Sequence record: MH051916
Length of the DNA stretch: 64,000 nucleotides
Reading direction: 5' to 3' (one strand)
Source of the DNA: Enterobacteria phage vB_EcoM_IME340
Both the position numbers and the translations under genes were made by a program. Of this stretch, positions 2,004-51,384 are shown one piece after another (position 1 is the stretch's first letter; every line of letters begins with the position of its first letter). The notes under the pieces are model-generated. The model ran no database searches. It had not been told where the DNA came from and saw only the letters and a program-made list of their open reading frames with translations.

Positions 2004-3246
<1,243 letters not shown>

Positions 3247-3247
3247 T

Positions 3248-3277
3248 GTTTACTTCCTCCAAGGACTTTGATACTAT
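3248..3277 (+). promoter_or_regulatory. early promoter (GTTTAC-N18-TACTAT)
   Basis: GTTTAC at 3248-3253 and TACTAT 18 nt downstream, upstream of denV. Confidence 0.5.
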
Positions 3278-3304
3278 ACATTCATCAACTACTTGGAGGA
3301 AATT

Positions 3305-3718
3305 ATGACTCGTATCAATTTAACACTTGTTTCTGAACTGACCGACCAACATCTTATGGCTGAGTATCGTGAATTACCACGCGTATTTGGTGCAGTCCGT
3401 AAACATGTTCAAAACGGTAAACGTGTAAAGGATTTTAAAATCTCTCCAACATTTATCTTAGGCACAGGTCACGTAACATTCTTTTATGACAAACTCGAAT
3501 TTTTACGTTTACGTCAAATCGAGCTAATCGCTGAATGCTTGAAACGTGGTTTCAAAATCAAGGACACGACTGTCCAGGATATTTCCGACATCCCTGTCGA
3601 ATTTCGTAATAATTATGTCCCGTCCGAAGCGTCCATTGCGATAAGTCAAGCTCGCTTAGATGAAAAAATTGCTCAACGCCCTACTTGGTACAAATACTAT
3701 GGTAAATCAATTTACTAA
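3305..3718 (+). CDS. denV: endonuclease V, pyrimidine-dimer DNA glycosylase
   Basis: [31 protein letters not shown]... matches T4 DenV as recalled; start moved to ATG after GGAGG. Confidence 0.95.
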
Positions 3719-3724
3719 GGAAAA

Positions 3725-3985
3725 ATGAAAATGTATCAAGAATTTATCGCTGAAGCAGATGCCAAAGGCCCCAAATTTAAAGTTAAAGCTTTCGTTGGTG
3801 ATGCCGAAGATTTTGGCTCATTAAAACGTAATGGGTATTTTTTCTTAGGTGGTGATGGTAAAGAAATCAACACCTATGCAAAACGTAGTGAAATTGCTTA
3901 TGTTGCTGCAAGTCCTAAAGTAGATGTTGACGATATTGGATACGATTTTAACAACTTCGGAATTATTTCTGGCGGTGAAGCTTAA
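3725..3985 (+). CDS. internal-protein-like head protein with CTS (86 aa)
   Basis: N-terminus MKMYQEFIAEA = IP capsid-targeting sequence. Confidence 0.7.
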   Translation: MKMYQEFIAEADAKGPKFKVKAFVGDAEDFGSLKRNGYFFLGGDGKEINTYAKRSEIAYVAASPKVDVDDIGYDFNNFGIISGGEA

Positions 3986-3988
3986 ACG

Positions 3989-4018
3989 GTTTACGCTTAA
4001 GTATTAATATGGTATAAT
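3989..4018 (+). promoter_or_regulatory. early promoter
   Basis: GTTTAC 3989-3994, TATAAT 4013-4018, 18-nt spacer. Confidence 0.6.
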
Positions 4019-4048
4019 TACTCTATCAAAACAAACAAGGAAACAAAA

Positions 4049-4363
4049 ATGAAAACATATAAAGAATTTATTGCAGAATCCGCCAACCAACGCGTTGAAG
4101 GTGGTTATATTTGGATTGAACAAGTTGAGCCACCGAGCCGCACTTCTACAGGTAAATGGAAAATTACTGTTGATGGTCCTGGTGGTAAACGTAGGACTCT
4201 TAAAGAAATTAATGGGTACTATGAAGAAGCTCTTTCGGATGCAGGAACTTACATGATGCAAATCATGATTAAAAACCCTGAAAACCGTTTTGCAGCTAAA
4301 GTCTTCCGACGCATCGGTAATAAACTTTATGACGCATACTCTAAAAACTTCCCTAAAGAATAA
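4049..4363 (+). CDS. internal-protein-like head protein with CTS (104 aa), IPII-like by size
   Basis: N-terminus MKTYKEFIAES; basic small protein. Confidence 0.7.
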   Translation: MKTYKEFIAESANQRVEGGYIWIEQVEPPSRTSTGKWKITVDGPGGKRRTLKEINGYYEEALSDAGTYMMQIMIKNPENRFAAKVFRRIGNKLYDAYSKNFPKE

Positions 4364-4389
4364 CATGAATTAAAACAATAGGAACAAAA

Positions 4390-4968
4390 ATGAAAACGTA
4401 TCAAGAATTTATTGCTGAAGCTTCTGTAGTAAAGGCCAAAGGCATTAATAAGGACGAGTGGAACTATCGTGGTGGAAACGGCTTTGACCCTAAAACAGCC
4501 CCTATTGAACGATACTTAGCTACAAAAGCTTCCGATTTTAAAGCTTTCGCTTGGGAAGGACTTCGCTGGCGTACCGATTTAAATATTGAAGTTGACGGAC
4601 TTAAATTTGCTCATATTGAAGATGTTGTTGCTAGTAACTTAGACGCAGCTTTTGTTAAAGCCGACAGTGATCTTCGTCGCTGGAATTTAAAACTGTTCTC
4701 TAAACAAAAAGGCCCGAAGTTTGTGCCTAAAGCCGGTAAATGGGTCATTGATAATAAATTAGCTAAGGCTGTCAACTACGCTGGTCTTGAATTCGCCAAG
4801 CACAAATCATCATGGAAAGGTCTTGATGCAATGGCTTTCCGTAAAGAATTTGCCGATGTTATGGCTAAAGGCGGCTTTAAGGCAGAAATAGATACCTCTA
4901 AAGGTACGTTTAAGGACGCTAATGTTCAGTACGCTTACGCCGTTGCTAATGCAGCCCGTGGTAATTAA
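4390..4968 (+). CDS. ipIII: internal protein III
   Basis: 192 aa; MKTYQEFIAEASVVKAKGINKDEW... matches T4 IPIII as recalled. Confidence 0.9.
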   Translation: MKTYQEFIAEASVVKAKGINKDEWNYRGGNGFDPKTAPIERYLATKASDFKAFAWEGLRWRTDLNIEVDGLKFAHIEDVVASNLDAAFVKADSDLRRWNLKLFSKQKGPKFVPKAGKWVIDNKLAKAVNYAGLEFAKHKSSWKGLDAMAFRKEFADVMAKGGFKAEIDTSKGTFKDANVQYAYAVANAARGN

Positions 4969-45737: not shown

Positions 45738-47165
45738 GTGGTAGAAATTATTCTTTCTCATCTCATATTTGATCAAGCTTATTTTTCAAAAGTTTGGCCA
45801 TATATGGATTCAGAATATTTTGAAAGTGGTCCAGCTAAAAATACATTCAAATTAATTAAATCTCATGTTAATGAGTATCATAGCGTTCCATCTATTAATG
45901 CGTTAAATGTTGCATTAGAAAATAGTTCATTTACTGAAACAGAATATTCTGGTGTAAAAACACTTATTTCAAAACTAGCCGATTCTCCAGAAGACCACAG
46001 CTGGTTAGTAAAAGAAACAGAAAAATATGTTCAGCAAAGGGCGATGTTTAATGCTACGTCTAAAATAATTGAAATTCAAACTAATGCTGAGCTTCCTCCG
46101 GAAAAACGAAATAAGAAAATGCCGGATGTTGGTGCTATTCCTGACATCATGCGCCAAGCATTATCAATTTCATTTGATAGCTATGTTGGCCATGATTGGA
46201 TGGATGACTATGAAGCACGTTGGCTATCTTATATGAATAAAGCTCGTAAGGTTCCATTTAGACTCAAAATTCTAAATAAAATTACTAAAGGCGGAGCTGA
46301 GACTGGAACACTGAACGTTTTAATGGCTGGTGTTAACGTCGGTAAGTCATTAGGTCTGTGTTCATTGGCAGCAGATTATTTACAGCTCGGTCATAATGTT
46401 CTTTACATTTCAATGGAAATGGCAGAAGAAGTCTGTGCTAAACGTATTGACGCTAATATGCTCGATGTTTCTCTTGATGACATTGATGATGGGCATATTT
46501 CTTACGCTGAATATAAAGGAAAAATGGAAAAATGGCGTGAGAAATCTACTCTCGGCCGTTTAATCGTTAAACAGTATCCTACTGGTGGAGCAGACGCTAA
46601 TACATTTCGATCGCTTTTAAACGAATTGAAGCTCAAGAAGAATTTTGTTCCAACAATCATTATTGTCGACTATCTAGGTATATGTAAATCTTGCCGCATC
46701 AGAGTTTACTCAGAAAATAGTTACACAACTGTTAAAGCTATCGCAGAGGAATTGCGTGCTCTGGCTGTTGAAACCGAAACTGTTCTTTGGACTGCAGCAC
46801 AGGTTGGTAAGCAAGCTTGGGATTCTTCTGATGTTAACATGAGCGATATTGCAGAATCCGCCGGTCTTCCAGCAACAGCCGATTTTATGCTTGCGGTCAT
46901 TGAAACCGAGGAGTTAGCAGCTGCTGAACAACAACTCATTAAGCAAATTAAATCACGATATGGTGATAAGAATAAATGGAATAAGTTTTTGATGGGTGTT
47001 CAAAAAGGAAATCAGAAATGGGTAGAAATTGAACAAGATTCTACTCCAACTGAAGTGAACGAAGTAGCAGGTTCACAACAGATACAAGCTGAGCAGAATC
47101 GCTATCAAAGAAATGAATCTACTCGAGCTCAGTTAGATGCTTTAGCAAATGAATTAAAATTTTAG
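45738..47165 (+). CDS. 41: replicative DNA helicase gp41
   Basis: 475 aa, GTG start; MVEIILSHLIFDQAYFSKVWPYMDSEYF; Walker A GVNVGKS. Confidence 0.93.
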   Translation: MVEIILSHLIFDQAYFSKVWPYMDSEYFESGPAKNTFKLIKSHVNEYHSVPSINALNVALENSSFTETEYSGVKTLISKLADSPEDHSWLVKETEKYVQQRAMFNATSKIIEIQTNAELPPEKRNKKMPDVGAIPDIMRQALSISFDSYVGHDWMDDYEARWLSYMNKARKVPFRLKILNKITKGGAETGTLNVLMAGVNVGKSLGLCSLAADYLQLGHNVLYISMEMAEEVCAKRIDANMLDVSLDDIDDGHISYAEYKGKMEKWREKSTLGRLIVKQYPTGGADANTFRSLLNELKLKKNFVPTIIIVDYLGICKSCRIRVYSENSYTTVKAIAEELRALAVETETVLWTAAQVGKQAWDSSDVNMSDIAESAGLPATADFMLAVIETEELAAAEQQLIKQIKSRYGDKNKWNKFLMGVQKGNQKWVEIEQDSTPTEVNEVAGSQQIQAEQNRYQRNESTRAQLDALANELKF

Positions 47166-47194
47166 TTTACAAGCTGACAAGACTATGGTATAGT
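47165..47194 (+). promoter_or_regulatory. early promoter
   Basis: GTTTAC 47165-47170, TATAGT 47189-47194. Confidence 0.6.
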
Positions 47195-47661: not shown

Positions 47662-47691
47662 GTTTACAAGCTGATAGAGTTGTGTTATAGT
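47662..47691 (+). promoter_or_regulatory. early promoter
   Basis: GTTTAC 47662-47667, TATAGT 47686-47691. Confidence 0.6.
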
Positions 47692-48034: not shown

Positions 48035-48328
48035 ATGAAAAAATTTGTTTTTGCTGCAATTTTTGCTTTAGCTTCTTGTGCTGCTCAGCCTGCTATGGCA
48101 GGTTATGATAAAGATTTGTGCGAATGGTCTATGACTGCAGATCAGACTGAGGTTGAAACTCAGATTGAAGCAGATATTATGAATATCGTTGAGCGTGATC
48201 GCCCTGAAATGAAAGCTGAAGTACAAAAACAGCTTAAGTCTGGTGGTGTAATGCAGTATAATTACGTTCTGTATTGTGATAAAAACTTCAATAATAAAAA
48301 TATCATCGCTGAAGTGGTAGGTGAATAA
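48035..48328 (+). CDS. sp: Spackle (61.3), periplasmic superinfection-exclusion protein
   Basis: 97 aa, signal peptide; MKKFVFAAIFALASCAAQPAMAGYDKDLCEWSMTADQTEVE... matches T4 Sp as recalled. Confidence 0.85.
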   Translation: MKKFVFAAIFALASCAAQPAMAGYDKDLCEWSMTADQTEVETQIEADIMNIVERDRPEMKAEVQKQLKSGGVMQYNYVLYCDKNFNNKNIIAEVVGE

Positions 48329-48340
48329 TTAGAGGTTAGT

Positions 48341-48697
48341 ATGTATAGTTCTGAATTTTCATATTTAAAAATGGAAAAAATTTCATACGATTTTATAGAT
48401 GAAAAGGTTTATTACAGTTTCCATGAACCACGTTTTAATAGTGAGGTTGGGTTTATTGTAGTAAAAGACAATTTTATTTTAAAAATATATTCGGCGTTAA
48501 AGGATTTTCACTACGAAAATATTAACCTAAAATTTGATAAAGAAAACGTTCGAAATTGTGCAGTAACAATTACAGGAAATAAAGATACATGTGTTATGCT
48601 ATCTGATGAAATTAATGATTTGCTAAATGACGCAGAAAGGGTTGCTATTCCATCAATTGATGACCAAATTTTTAATGCTTTTATGAATAGAGGTTAA
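48341..48697 (+). CDS. hypothetical protein (118 aa), 61.2 position
   Basis: ORF-track CDS. Confidence 0.5.
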   Translation: MYSSEFSYLKMEKISYDFIDEKVYYSFHEPRFNSEVGFIVVKDNFILKIYSALKDFHYENINLKFDKENVRNCAVTITGNKDTCVMLSDEINDLLNDAERVAIPSIDDQIFNAFMNRG

Positions 48698-48698
48698 T

Positions 48699-48863
48699 AT
48701 GAAAACATATAAAGAATTTATCAAAGAAGATATGGTAGCTGGAGATTCAGGTGGTAATCCTGAAAATATCTCTACTGGAACAACGTCAGGTGCTGTAGTA
48801 AATAAAGGTCCTGAACAGATTCCTAAAAAGAAAAAAGAGGAATCTAAAGAAAAAGAAGAGTAA
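48699..48863 (+). CDS. small protein with capsid-targeting-like N-terminus (54 aa)
   Basis: MKTYKEFIKED resembles IP CTS MKTYQEFIAE; Gly/Lys/Glu-rich tail; below ORF-track cut-off. Confidence 0.45.
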   Translation: MKTYKEFIKEDMVAGDSGGNPENISTGTTSGAVVNKGPEQIPKKKKEESKEKEE

Positions 48864-48865
48864 AA

Positions 48866-49894
48866 ATGTCATCAATACCTTGGATTGATAATGAGTTTGC
48901 ATACCGTGCATTAGCTCATTTACCTAAATTCACACAAGTAAATAATAGTTCAACTTTTAAATTACGGTTTAGATGTCCTGTTTGTGGAGATTCAAAAACC
49001 GACCAAAATAAAGCCCGTGGATGGTATTACGGTGATAATAATGAAGGAAATATTCATTGTTATAACTGTAACTATCATGCACCAATCGGAATATATTTAA
49101 AGGAGTTTGAACCTGATTTATATCGTGAGTATATCTTTGAAATAAGAAAAGAAAAAGGTAAAAGTCGTCCAGTAGAAAAACCTAAAGAACTTCCTAAACA
49201 ACCCGAGAAGAAAATAATTAAATCTCTTCCGTCATGCATTAGATTAGATAAACTGACGGAAGACCATCCAATTATAAAATACGTAAAAGCTCGCTGTATT
49301 CCAAAGGATAAATGGAAATATCTTTGGTTTACAACTGAATGGCCTAAATTAGTTAATAGTATAGCACCAGGAACATATAAAAAGGAAATACCTGAGTCTC
49401 GTCTTGTTATTCCAATTTATAATGTTAATGGAAAAGCTGAGTCTTTTCAAGGACGTGCATTAAAGAAAGATGCTCCTCAAAAATATATCACCATCAAAGC
49501 TTATCCTGAGGCAACAAAAATCTATGGTGTTGAACGGGTTAAAGACGGTGATGTATATGTTCTAGAAGGACCTATAGATTCGCTTTTTATTGAAAATGGT
49601 ATAGCTATTACAGGCGGTCAATTAGACCTAGAAATTGTTCCATTTAAAGATAGACGTGTATGGGTTTTAGATAATGAACCTCGTCATCCTGACACTATTA
49701 AGCGAATGACTAAATTAGTTGATGCAGGAGAAAGAGTTATGTTTTGGGATAAATCTCCCTGGAAATCAAAAGATGTTAATGATATGATTAGAAAGGAAGG
49801 TGCAACCCCTGAACAAATTATGGAATATATGAAAAATAATATTGCCCAGGGGTTGATGGCTAAAATGCGGTTATCTAAATATGCTAAGATTTAA
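48866..49894 (+). CDS. 61: DNA primase gp61
   Basis: 342 aa; zinc ribbon CPVCGDSK...CYNCNYH; TOPRIM region. Confidence 0.9.
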   Translation: MSSIPWIDNEFAYRALAHLPKFTQVNNSSTFKLRFRCPVCGDSKTDQNKARGWYYGDNNEGNIHCYNCNYHAPIGIYLKEFEPDLYREYIFEIRKEKGKSRPVEKPKELPKQPEKKIIKSLPSCIRLDKLTEDHPIIKYVKARCIPKDKWKYLWFTTEWPKLVNSIAPGTYKKEIPESRLVIPIYNVNGKAESFQGRALKKDAPQKYITIKAYPEATKIYGVERVKDGDVYVLEGPIDSLFIENGIAITGGQLDLEIVPFKDRRVWVLDNEPRHPDTIKRMTKLVDAGERVMFWDKSPWKSKDVNDMIRKEGATPEQIMEYMKNNIAQGLMAKMRLSKYAKI

Positions 49895-50091
49895 ATTAAC
49901 CCAACTAAAGCAAATGCTAAATCTACGAATGTATCAAGAGTAACTACTGGAATATTAATACCATGCGCAATAGCAACTGGCGATAAAACAAAATTCCAAA
50001 GTAAAATTCCTATCATAGCAGAAATAGTAAAAGCTATACGTTTTTTATTACCTTTGATGGCATTAACAAGTGCCATTAATTTTTGTACCAT
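49891..50091 (-). CDS. small two-helix membrane protein (66 aa), convergent to gene 61
   Basis: only minus-strand ORF in an otherwise uncoded gap; strong SD AAGGAGG 4 nt before ATG; near-TATAAATA motif upstream. Confidence 0.45.
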   Translation of the reverse strand: MVQKLMALVNAIKGNKKRIAFTISAMIGILLWNFVLSPVAIAHGINIPVVTLDTFVDLAFALVGLI

Positions 50092-50161: not shown

Positions 50162-50812
50162 GTGAATTACCAAAAAATTTACTCGGCTTTAATTACAAAA
50201 GCTAAATGCCGGCATCTTGGCGGATATAAAGAACGCCATCATATAATTCCTAGATGTATGGGAGGAACAGATGGCAAAAACAATCTTGTTGAGTTAACTG
50301 CGCGTGAGCATTTTATAGCTCATAGATTATTAACTAAAATATATCCAGATGTGAGAGGATTGCATTATGCTGTAAATTTAATGCGATATAATAAAGGTGT
50401 TAAATTAACAAGTAGATTAATAGAAACCCTTAAAATCCAAAACTCCGTTCTTTTCTCGGGTGAAAATAATCCTAGATATGGCAAGCCGTCATGGATTAAA
50501 GGCAAAAAGACCCCAGAAGAAACTAAAGCCAAAATGCGTCTAGCTCATAAAGGTAAAATTATATCCGATGAAGCCAAGGCTAATATGAGTAAAGCCCGAA
50601 AAGGAAGATTTAGCGGTAAAAATTCACCTCGATATGGTTTACCAAATCCTAGGCGAGGAGAAATATGGAATAGTTATGATGCGCTTTATGAATTATGGGT
50701 TTATAATAATAGACCTAAACGCACAAAATTTAATAAAATAGCTGTCAAGGCAGGTTATCCTAATATCTGCTATAGACATATGATAGAAAACTTCATAAGA
50801 AAGGAAAAATAA
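50162..50812 (+). CDS. HNH homing-type endonuclease with NUMOD-like repeats
   Basis: HNH core HHIIPRCMGGTDGKNNLVELTAREHFIAH; repeated NPRYG / NSPRYG motifs; GTG start after AGGA. Confidence 0.7.
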   Translation: MNYQKIYSALITKAKCRHLGGYKERHHIIPRCMGGTDGKNNLVELTAREHFIAHRLLTKIYPDVRGLHYAVNLMRYNKGVKLTSRLIETLKIQNSVLFSGENNPRYGKPSWIKGKKTPEETKAKMRLAHKGKIISDEAKANMSKARKGRFSGKNSPRYGLPNPRRGEIWNSYDALYELWVYNNRPKRTKFNKIAVKAGYPNICYRHMIENFIRKEK

Positions 50813-51376: not shown

Positions 51377-51384
51377 TATAAATA
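51377..51384 (+). promoter_or_regulatory. late promoter for soc
   Basis: exact TATAAATA 31 nt upstream of soc ATG. Confidence 0.7.

Follow-up and report, generated by a model that had tools for sequence, protein, structure and literature searches.

Gene 61.1 of T4-like phages encodes a small protein built on the cut site and N-fist of the major capsid protein

Gene 61.1 of Enterobacteria phage vB_EcoM_IME340 (sequence record MH051916) is the subject of this article. We analyzed it within a window of 64,000 nucleotides, meaning the whole stretch of phage DNA under study, the plus strand of which is the minus strand of T4. The gene starts at an ATG and, by the sequence and its list of open reading frames (ORFs), encodes a protein of 54 residues, MKTYKEFIKEDMVAGDSGGNPENISTGTTSGAVVNKGPEQIPKKKKEESKEKEE. 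An earlier note, made from the sequence alone, had called this ORF unannotated; in fact T4 and its relatives have it annotated, as gene 61.1. The order of genes is 41, dmd, 61.4, an ORF of 84 residues, sp, 61.2, 61.1, 61 (Table 1), and 61.1 fits snugly among its neighbors: the stop codon of 61.2 (TAA, 48695-48697) lies 1 nucleotide before its ATG, and the ATG of gene 61 follows 2 nucleotides past its own stop.

The region around 61.1 is 97-98% identical to many Tequatrovirus genomes, with phage OES_C-2 at the top (97.8%). The HY01 protein is identical to that of the window, the two genes differing by 0 non-synonymous and 4 synonymous changes, and T4 gp61.1 (MKTFKEFIKED...) differs at 2 positions. 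Against profiles, the product matches the short form of the family over its full length (PHROG 1823, residues 1-54, E=7e-34) and the long form over residues 8-53 (phrog_2086, profile positions 109-154, E=2.6e-16), and tblastn found homologues in 1,395 phage records. The gene sits just upstream of gene 61 in T4, HY01, RB43, and Ac42, as it does here; in phage 133, an Aeromonas phage, and Krischvirus, one or more ORFs come between the two. Even distant metagenomic T4-like phages have a homologue in the same replication-gene neighborhood, followed in one contig by a primase-sized ORF. The ratio of non-synonymous to synonymous rates (dN/dS) is 0-0.28 overall and 0.16-0.28 where measurable; against other genera the non-synonymous divergence (pN) is 0.19-0.31, with synonymous sites saturated. 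Judged by these comparisons, 61.1 is a real, conserved small protein under purifying selection. That it might be a non-gene, or its resemblances chance, is ruled out by the conservation, the dN/dS values, and the PHROG matches.

What the protein is called in public records is another matter, since the labels conflict: "hypothetical", "major capsid protein", "major capsid (domain-containing) protein", and "methyltransferase" all occur. (In Enterobacter phage vB_EkoM5VN, the "major capsid protein" label has been placed on a neighboring, unrelated ORF of 73 residues.) Neither the short form, the long forms, nor the distant members matched a Pfam family, and in the literature we found gp61.1 only as an entry in two gene tables, with no functional study. 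Already known, then, are the annotation of 61.1 and a similarity to capsid protein that automated pipelines have picked up. What we add, having found no earlier description, is the extent of that similarity (cut site plus N-fist), the long and short architectures, the conserved protease motif, and the lineage flavors of the capsid-like module.

The similarity is to the N-terminal part of gp23. The best match of gp61.1 in the Protein Data Bank is T4 gp23, residues 4-39 aligning with gp23 59-94 (phmmer, E=0.0085), and a pairwise BLASTP against Tequatrovirus gp23 aligns residues 2-38 with 57-93 at 16 of 37 identities (E=1e-8). Searched the other way, the gp23 N-terminus matches the 61.1 profiles at E=5.5e-10 for the short form (PHROG 1823) and 6.3e-8 for the long form, and comparison of profile with profile (hhalign) gives a probability of 97.7% at E=1.8e-12. 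A tblastn search with 61.1 also hit gene 23 of Acinetobacter phage 133. The alignment runs in register from the scissile glutamate, gp23 reading ...FGSFLTE↓AEIGGDHGYNATNIAAGQTSGAVTQIGP and 61.1 reading MKTYKEFIKE↓DMVAGDSGGNPENISTGTTSGAVVNKGP, where the arrow marks the bond, so placing the first ten residues of 61.1 opposite the end of the gp23 propeptide, residues 57-65 (QAFGSFLTE↓). Beyond the bond, the two families have in common G, D, G, I, G, G, G, and P at 61.1 positions 15, 16, 18, 24, 27, 31, 37, and 38. Resemblance within the enteric/Acinetobacter clade reflects shared conserved positions and not ongoing gene conversion. One further likeness we set aside: GDSGG (48741-48755, residues 15-19) recalls the active site of chymotrypsin-family serine proteases, but the serine is alanine in many members and the protein has only 54 residues, and we regard the match as coincidental.

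The copied segment is a notable one in head assembly. Residues 66-91 of gp23 form the "N-fist", an unusual feature of the mature protein, which touches four subunits and contributes to the Soc site (PMC9958956, PMC7136217). Before the head expands, gp23 residues 66-105 are disordered on its inside, where the scaffolding core is their probable contact; this same stretch is the site of the head-length mutations A66D, A94V, and G97S (PMC9546572). By its sequence, gp61.1 is a free-standing copy of this part of the capsid protein, comprising the end of the propeptide, a gp21 site (LTE↓A in gp23), and a copy of the N-fist, to which a basic tail is joined. The similarity is confined to gp23 57-93 (50-99 for the long forms), and the HK97-fold body, with its A, P, and I domains, is not present in the 54-residue protein. 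The record label "major capsid" is therefore misleading: gp61.1 is not a capsid protein in the structural sense. Nor does the earlier description of everything after the N-terminus as a Gly/Lys/Glu-rich tail hold, for residues 11-38 are the conserved gp23-homologous module and the charged Lys/Glu tail is limited to residues 39-54.

The protease gp21 has the specificity I/L-x-E (PMC12991175), and residues 8-10 of gp61.1, I-K-E, fit it. To read the site across the family, we took P1 as the residue two positions before (M/V)-V-A-G-D and P3 as the residue two before P1. Of 134 cluster representatives, 128 have Glu at P1 and the other 6 have Asp; P3 is Leu, Ile, Met, or Val in every one (134/134), with 12 different residues at P2. 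In a model of the long form described below, the region of the site is predicted to be disordered.

The first ten residues have a second likeness, which was the point of the earlier note: a capsid-targeting sequence (CTS), as found on the internal proteins (IPs) of T4, at the start of an ORF far from the IP locus. This proved well founded. The decapeptide is identical at 8 of 10 positions to the canonical T4 CTS, MKTYQEFIAE, and at 7-9 of 10 to the N-termini of the four CTS-bearing ORFs in the IP locus of the window (starting at 2965, 3725, 4049, and 4390), reaching 9 of 10 with MKTYKEFIAE at 4049. When all ORFs of the window were compared with one another, N-terminal identities of at least 8 of 10 occurred only among the IP ORFs and 61.1, and unrelated pairs reached 7 of 10 at most. 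Experiments on the CTS of IPIII tie targeting to positions 4 and 7, and processing to positions 8 and 10 (review PMC9026906); gp61.1 has Tyr4 (Phe4 in T4), Phe7, Ile8, and Glu10, all four determinants, with Lys at position 9. The CTS resemblance is, on these counts, real and beyond chance. Where it came from is a different question. The first 24 nucleotides of 61.1 match the ORF at 4049 at 23 of 24 positions, which might suggest recent transfer of the 5' end of an IP gene, but there is no similarity upstream of the ATG. The T4-type decapeptide also aligns in the family with an internal segment of the long form, QKEIFKEL..FE, and descent from that segment, and not from an IP gene, is at least as likely.

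Coding for a CTS-like N-terminus does not make 61.1 a member of the IP locus. That locus (2965-4968) comprises four ORFs, none with a Pfam match, preceded by two matches to the late promoter TATAAATA at 2444 and 2457; 61.1 is encoded about 44 kb away, with no late promoter nearby. In Mosigvirus, IPs with a normal CTS occur together with a long-form 61.1 that has none, and 50-kb stretches of a Krischvirus and of an Aeromonas phage held no set of ORFs sharing a CTS. The decapeptide is a lineage-specific N-terminus of an older family, because homologues in Mosigvirus, Pseudotevenvirus, Acinetobacter, and Vibrio phages have a domain of about 105 residues in its place and the IPs of these phages keep their normal CTS.

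Table 1. Positions of gene 61.1, its parts, and other features in the window
Feature	Position	Strand	Details
Gene 61.1, T4 gp61.1 homologue	48699..48863	+	54 codons plus stop; ORF list, PHROG 1823
Shine-Dalgarno GAGG	48690..48693	+	5 nucleotides before 61.1 ATG; read from sequence
CTS-like decapeptide MKTYKEFIKE, codons 1-10	48699..48728	+	ends in gp21-type site I-K-E↓D
Codons 11-38, DMVAGDSGGNPENISTGTTSGAVVNKGP	48729..48812	+	module homologous to gp23* residues 66-93 (N-fist 66-91 plus GP)
Codons 39-54, EQIPKKKKEESKEKEE	48813..48860	+	Lys-rich charged tail; family alignments
Early-type promoter-like site, TTTACA-17-TATAGT with TG	47166..47194	+	upstream of dmd; consensus scan
Second early-type promoter-like site	47663..47691	+	upstream of 47723 ORF, sp, 61.2, 61.1; consensus scan
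Helicase 41	45738-47165
sp	48035-48328		Pfam Spackle
61.2/AdfA-like ORF	48341-48697		118 residues
Primase 61	48866-49894
IP-locus ORFs, shared CTS	2965-3246, 3725-3985, 4049-4363, 4390-4968		tandem; MKTYQEFIAE among N-termini

The family to which gp61.1 belongs comes in two forms. Short forms are found in Tequatrovirus and several related genera, in Krischvirus, and in an Aeromonas phage; their N-termini include MKT(Y/F)KEF(I/V/L).E, MKSFKEVMNE, MIGFKQFVEENKLKE, MTILQQYLDSLNE, and MMKTFLE.... Long forms, of 150-166 residues, occur in Mosigvirus (HX01), Pseudotevenvirus (RB43, EkoM5VN), Roskildevirus, Winklervirus, the Acinetobacter phages Ac42 and 133, and KVP40-like vibriophages; in these, a helical domain of about 105 residues comes first, and the site, module, and tail after it are those of the short form. 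Eleven residues are invariant in the family (A14, G15, D16, G18, G19, I24, G27, T29, G31, G37, and P38), and the window protein has 11 of 11. It also has the core motif, E-(D/E)-M-V-A-G-D-(S/A)-G-G ... I..G.T.G ... G-P, and then the basic tail, here KKKKEESKEKEE. The tail varies in sequence across the family and is always rich in Lys/Arg. A 62-residue variant in two T6-like members (P0002 and P0004) has the same first 46 residues and the frameshift-like tail KRNLKKKKSKNVINTLD, still Lys-rich, which suggests that in the tail it is charge that is kept and not sequence. An exhaustive profile search gathered 1,655 sequence clusters at E <= 0.001, 283 of them at E <= 1e-10, and for most of the matches listed the N-terminal domain (PHROG 2086/18642, no Pfam) is all that is shared. 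The long form is probably the ancestral architecture, and is widespread. Its AlphaFold2 model is poor (mean predicted local distance difference test score, pLDDT, 57; predicted template modeling score, pTM, 0.35), and a Foldseek search of the Protein Data Bank with this poor model returned nothing below E=1.7.

The capsid-like module may follow the capsid protein of its own lineage. The gp23 of distant T4-like phages has no N-fist motif and reads, after its site, ...L(S/T/N)E↓(A)APTN...(F/Y)DP(V/I)LISLVRR. Some distant proteins of the 61.1 family end in just such marine-type gp23 sequence, the one we label P0230 as ...KMINE↓EPTNVIGDSGENDNIDTFDPIMKGMRRR. A profile of 72 marine-type gp23 segments picked out seven family members at E=1.3e-5 to 0.07, the best of 1,490 shuffled sequences scoring 0.16. 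The corresponding enteric-type profile found 33 other members at E=1.5e-13 to 7e-3 (best shuffled, 0.072), and of the seven with marine flavor it showed only P0273, at a value that is not meaningful (E=0.97). Going by these flavors, the module may match the gp23 of the same genome. Two of the marine-flavor genes lie in T4-like replication modules: the contig of P0266 has polB, RecA/UvsX, and a DnaB helicase upstream of the homologue, and that of P0273 has a DnaB helicase upstream and a primase-sized ORF after it. HTVC008M and Melnitz, marine relatives in culture, share with an IMG/VR contig a third kind of C-terminal end, an unrelated small beta-rich domain with no capsid-like segment.

Two observations on the distant members stand by themselves. 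P0258 and P0266 are multi-module proteins of 470-490 residues in which the marine-type capsid-like segment is internal (…MNE↓EPTNVIGDAGENDNIDTFDPILKAMQRRKKKK…), and downstream of it they share a further motif, (D)(F/I)IKE(A/S)M(K/T)RRKK…KFYK. In two distant metagenomic contigs (L093 9600-10001 and L108 9641-10000; P0266/P0273), a DUF7207 (PF23837) gene stands directly before the 61.1-family gene, and the two may be a conserved pair.

As to when 61.1 is expressed, the scans found two early-type promoter-like sites upstream (Table 1) and no terminator-like site between them and position 49000; the site upstream of dmd would start a transcription unit running into 61.1. On the plus strand, TATAAATA occurs only at 2444, 2457, 10548, and 51377. 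The T4 transcript of 61.1 belongs to the early class, as do those of ipII and ipIII, the proteins of which are late (PMC9697503 Table S2). Knock-down of T4 61.1 with dCas13d had no effect on fitness (score -0.84, "Not Fit"; PMC11879866 supplement).

Some features of the surrounding DNA deserve recording in their own right. The 61.2 of the window, with 118 residues, matches only the C-terminal half of the model for AdfA (anti-DarT factor A), positions 113-211 of 211; T4 61.2 spans 627 nucleotides (about 208 residues), and the window version is a truncated or differently built anti-DarT factor. Between primase 61 and dCTPase 56, an interval where T4 carries dam, the window has an ORF of 216 residues (50162-50812) with NUMOD3 motifs and a stretch, HHIIPRCMGG, that looks HNH-like by eye; by these marks it resembles a homing endonuclease. 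A hydrophobic ORF of 66 residues (49891-50091) lies on the strand opposite to it. The TATAAATA late-promoter match at 51377-51384 falls just past gene 56, where soc, the gene of the small outer capsid protein, would be expected from synteny with related phages.

What might such a protein do? We lean, tentatively and stopping just short of calling it probable, toward gp61.1 being a prohead-associated substrate of gp21, the product of its cleavage an N-fist-like peptide of 44 residues that ends in a basic tail. The protein would co-assemble into the prohead by way of its IP-type targeting peptide and its copy of the gp23 segment that probably contacts the core; we infer that it joins the prohead because it reproduces both of these. 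There, gp21 would cut after Glu10 to give the peptide DMVAGD...KEE; in other genera, cleavage would free this same peptide from a propeptide about 105 residues long. Once free, the peptide could either stay with the DNA as a passenger or modulate the contacts between shell and core. This sequence of events predicts that purified heads contain the semi-tryptic peptide DMVAGDSGGNPENISIGTTSGAVVNK, with a non-tryptic N-terminus at Asp11.

A good deal weighs against this. The residue after the cut, P1', is Asp or Glu in 124 of 134 family members, compared with the small or aliphatic residues (Ala, Ser, Thr, Val, or Ile; in gp23, Ala, Thr, Val, or Ile) found in gp23 and the IPs. The viable gp23 head-length mutant A66D has the same Asp at P1' (PMC9546572), and its viability suggests that Asp is tolerated there. 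Long forms have no N-terminal CTS. No TATAAATA late promoter lies on the plus strand from 10548 to 61.1; early transcription by itself is not decisive against packaging, because ipII and ipIII also have early transcripts with late protein. In a time-resolved proteome of T4-infected cells, gp61.1 went undetected although 61.2, sp, 61.4, and dmd were seen (PMC9697503). The accessible parts of the texts and supplements on mass spectrometry of T4 heads do not mention gp61.1, and no virion detection was found in them; nor do the published T4 capsid structures, as reviewed, show such an extra component (PMC9958956, PMC9546572, PMC7136217). Co-variation between residues of 61.1 and of gp23 from the same genome was absent in six pairs (cognate sum 98, permuted mean 97.5). 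And a 44-residue N-fist-like peptide is an odd cargo. Capsid-delivered cargo, the function suggested in the earlier note, is accordingly something we infer and do not observe, because the long forms lack a CTS, no late promoter is near, and the protein has escaped detection in cells and virions.

A broader version of the same idea, which we consider rather unlikely, would make the whole family a class of trans-acting mimics of the gp23 N-terminus, new to science and conserved among T4-like phages. In each protein a widespread domain, some 100 residues long, would be joined through a protease site to the first 30-45 residues of the capsid protein, copied in the version of the phage's own lineage. 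Like a cargo-loading tag, the copy would dock on the scaffolding core or inner shell at the place where the N-terminus of gp23 docks, and so load the domain for injection or tune shell-core contacts and head size. The 54-residue T4 protein would then be a minimal version, with an IP-type CTS replacing the domain.

Packaging is not the only use to which a copy of the gp23 N-terminus could be put. Made early, ahead of gp23, gp61.1 might instead act in the cytoplasm as a mimic or decoy, occupying a factor of host or phage that recognizes nascent or uncleaved gp23 N-termini (an immune sensor for a short capsid motif, EF-Tu, or a chaperone) and thereby blunting abortive infection or tuning the handling of gp23. 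We hold this, too, to be rather improbable, but there is a case for it. The transcript is early and in an early unit, the neighbors dmd, sp, and 61.2 (the last matching AdfA, against DarT) are counter-defense or exclusion genes, and the absence of a fitness effect on knock-down in the laboratory host is what would be expected of an accessory gene. Hosts do recognize capsid proteins by short motifs, Lit (which responds to Gol) and CapRel being examples. What triggers Lit is Gol, 29 residues within the first quarter of gp23, and N-terminal sequence flanking it stabilizes the binding of EF-Tu. The lineage-specific flavors of the copied module would fit as well. A decoy leaves unexplained, however, the aliphatic-x-Glu motif, which is the best-conserved feature upstream of the module, and the four CTS determinants kept in the T4-type N-terminus. 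The family is also near-universal and syntenic from T4 to Vibrio and marine T4-like phages, unlike typical anti-defense genes, which are patchy, and its likeness to gp23 stops at about the start of Gol.

Cleavage itself could be the point in another way, with gp61.1 as a pseudo-substrate or buffer, its gp23-like site with an acidic P1' binding gp21 in or outside proheads and restraining premature or off-target cleavage. The site copies that of gp23 faithfully and in register, and it is exactly at P1' that the family differs systematically from the Ala, Thr, Val, or Ile of gp23; moreover, gp21 activity outside proheads trips a CBASS cyclase (PMC12991175). Yet T4 without acb1 and acb2, in which 61.1 is present, remains fully sensitive to that CBASS (PMC12991175), and for that reason 61.1 cannot be an effective mask for gp21 there. 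A gene dedicated to protease inhibition is already present in T4 (HY01 annotates a "minor head protein inhibitor of protease"), and the viable A66D mutant suggests, once more, that gp21 tolerates this Asp. We think a buffering role improbable, and more plainly so than a decoy. Least credible of all, in our view, is that 61.1 is a vestige, a remnant of the long form minus its N-terminal domain, kept mainly by translational coupling to primase gene 61, with the CTS likeness coincidental or a by-product of recombination with IP genes. The tight junctions on both sides, the widespread and probably ancestral long form, the missing knock-down phenotype, and the undetected protein would all suit a relic. 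But the peptide sequence itself is under purifying selection (0 versus 4 changes against HY01; pN 0.19-0.31 against other genera), and the short forms of several genera keep both module and motif; mere coupling gives no reason for amino acids to be conserved.

Few assembly pathways have been studied as well as that of the T4 head, and both the list of gp21 substrates and the contents of the head are regarded as essentially complete. Gene 61.1 implies either a small head component that has been overlooked or a phage-made mimic of the N-terminus of the phage's own capsid protein. Whichever it turns out to be, the outcome bears on how the gp23 N-terminus engages the scaffolding core, in the region of the head-length mutations; on how proteins are loaded into T4 heads, a process used in T4 nanoparticle engineering; and on how phages respond to hosts that sense capsid motifs or protease activity.

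It is instructive to set gp61.1 beside the systems it recalls. After the GP that closes the module it parts from gp23, having a Lys/Arg-rich tail where gp23 has its N-arm and Gol region, and an acidic P1'. The only similarity to the N-arm/Gol sequence that we saw was GP(A/S)V(M), and that in a few long forms. Gol, the peptide that triggers Lit, likewise corresponds to a short piece of the first quarter of gp23 and acts by itself, but it is a different segment; we take Gol to be adjacent and downstream, the 61.1-gp23 similarity ending about where it begins. With IPI, IPII, and IPIII of T4, gp61.1 shares the decapeptide MKTY.EFI.E, the aromatic residue at 4 with Phe7, Ile8 with Glu10, and the predicted cut after Glu10, and the IPs are likewise dispensable in the laboratory. 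Unlike them, it is encoded in a replication-gene cluster, its mature part would be a 44-residue gp23-like peptide and not a folded basic protein, its P2 is Lys and its P1' Asp, and its homologues in other genera have no CTS. The long form, which would lose a propeptide of about 105 residues at aliphatic-x-Glu, brings to mind the substrates of the gp21-family proteases of SPN3US and phiKZ, the head propeptides of SPN3US exceeding 100 residues; there is no sequence relationship, and the mature part of those proteins is large and functional, whereas the putative mature part of 61.1 is tiny. Finally, there are the encapsulins, in which a cargo-loading peptide, a short disordered appendage of the cargo, binds the inner face of an HK97-fold shell. 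This is an analogy without homology, for 61.1 copies the N-terminus of the shell protein itself and carries a protease site.

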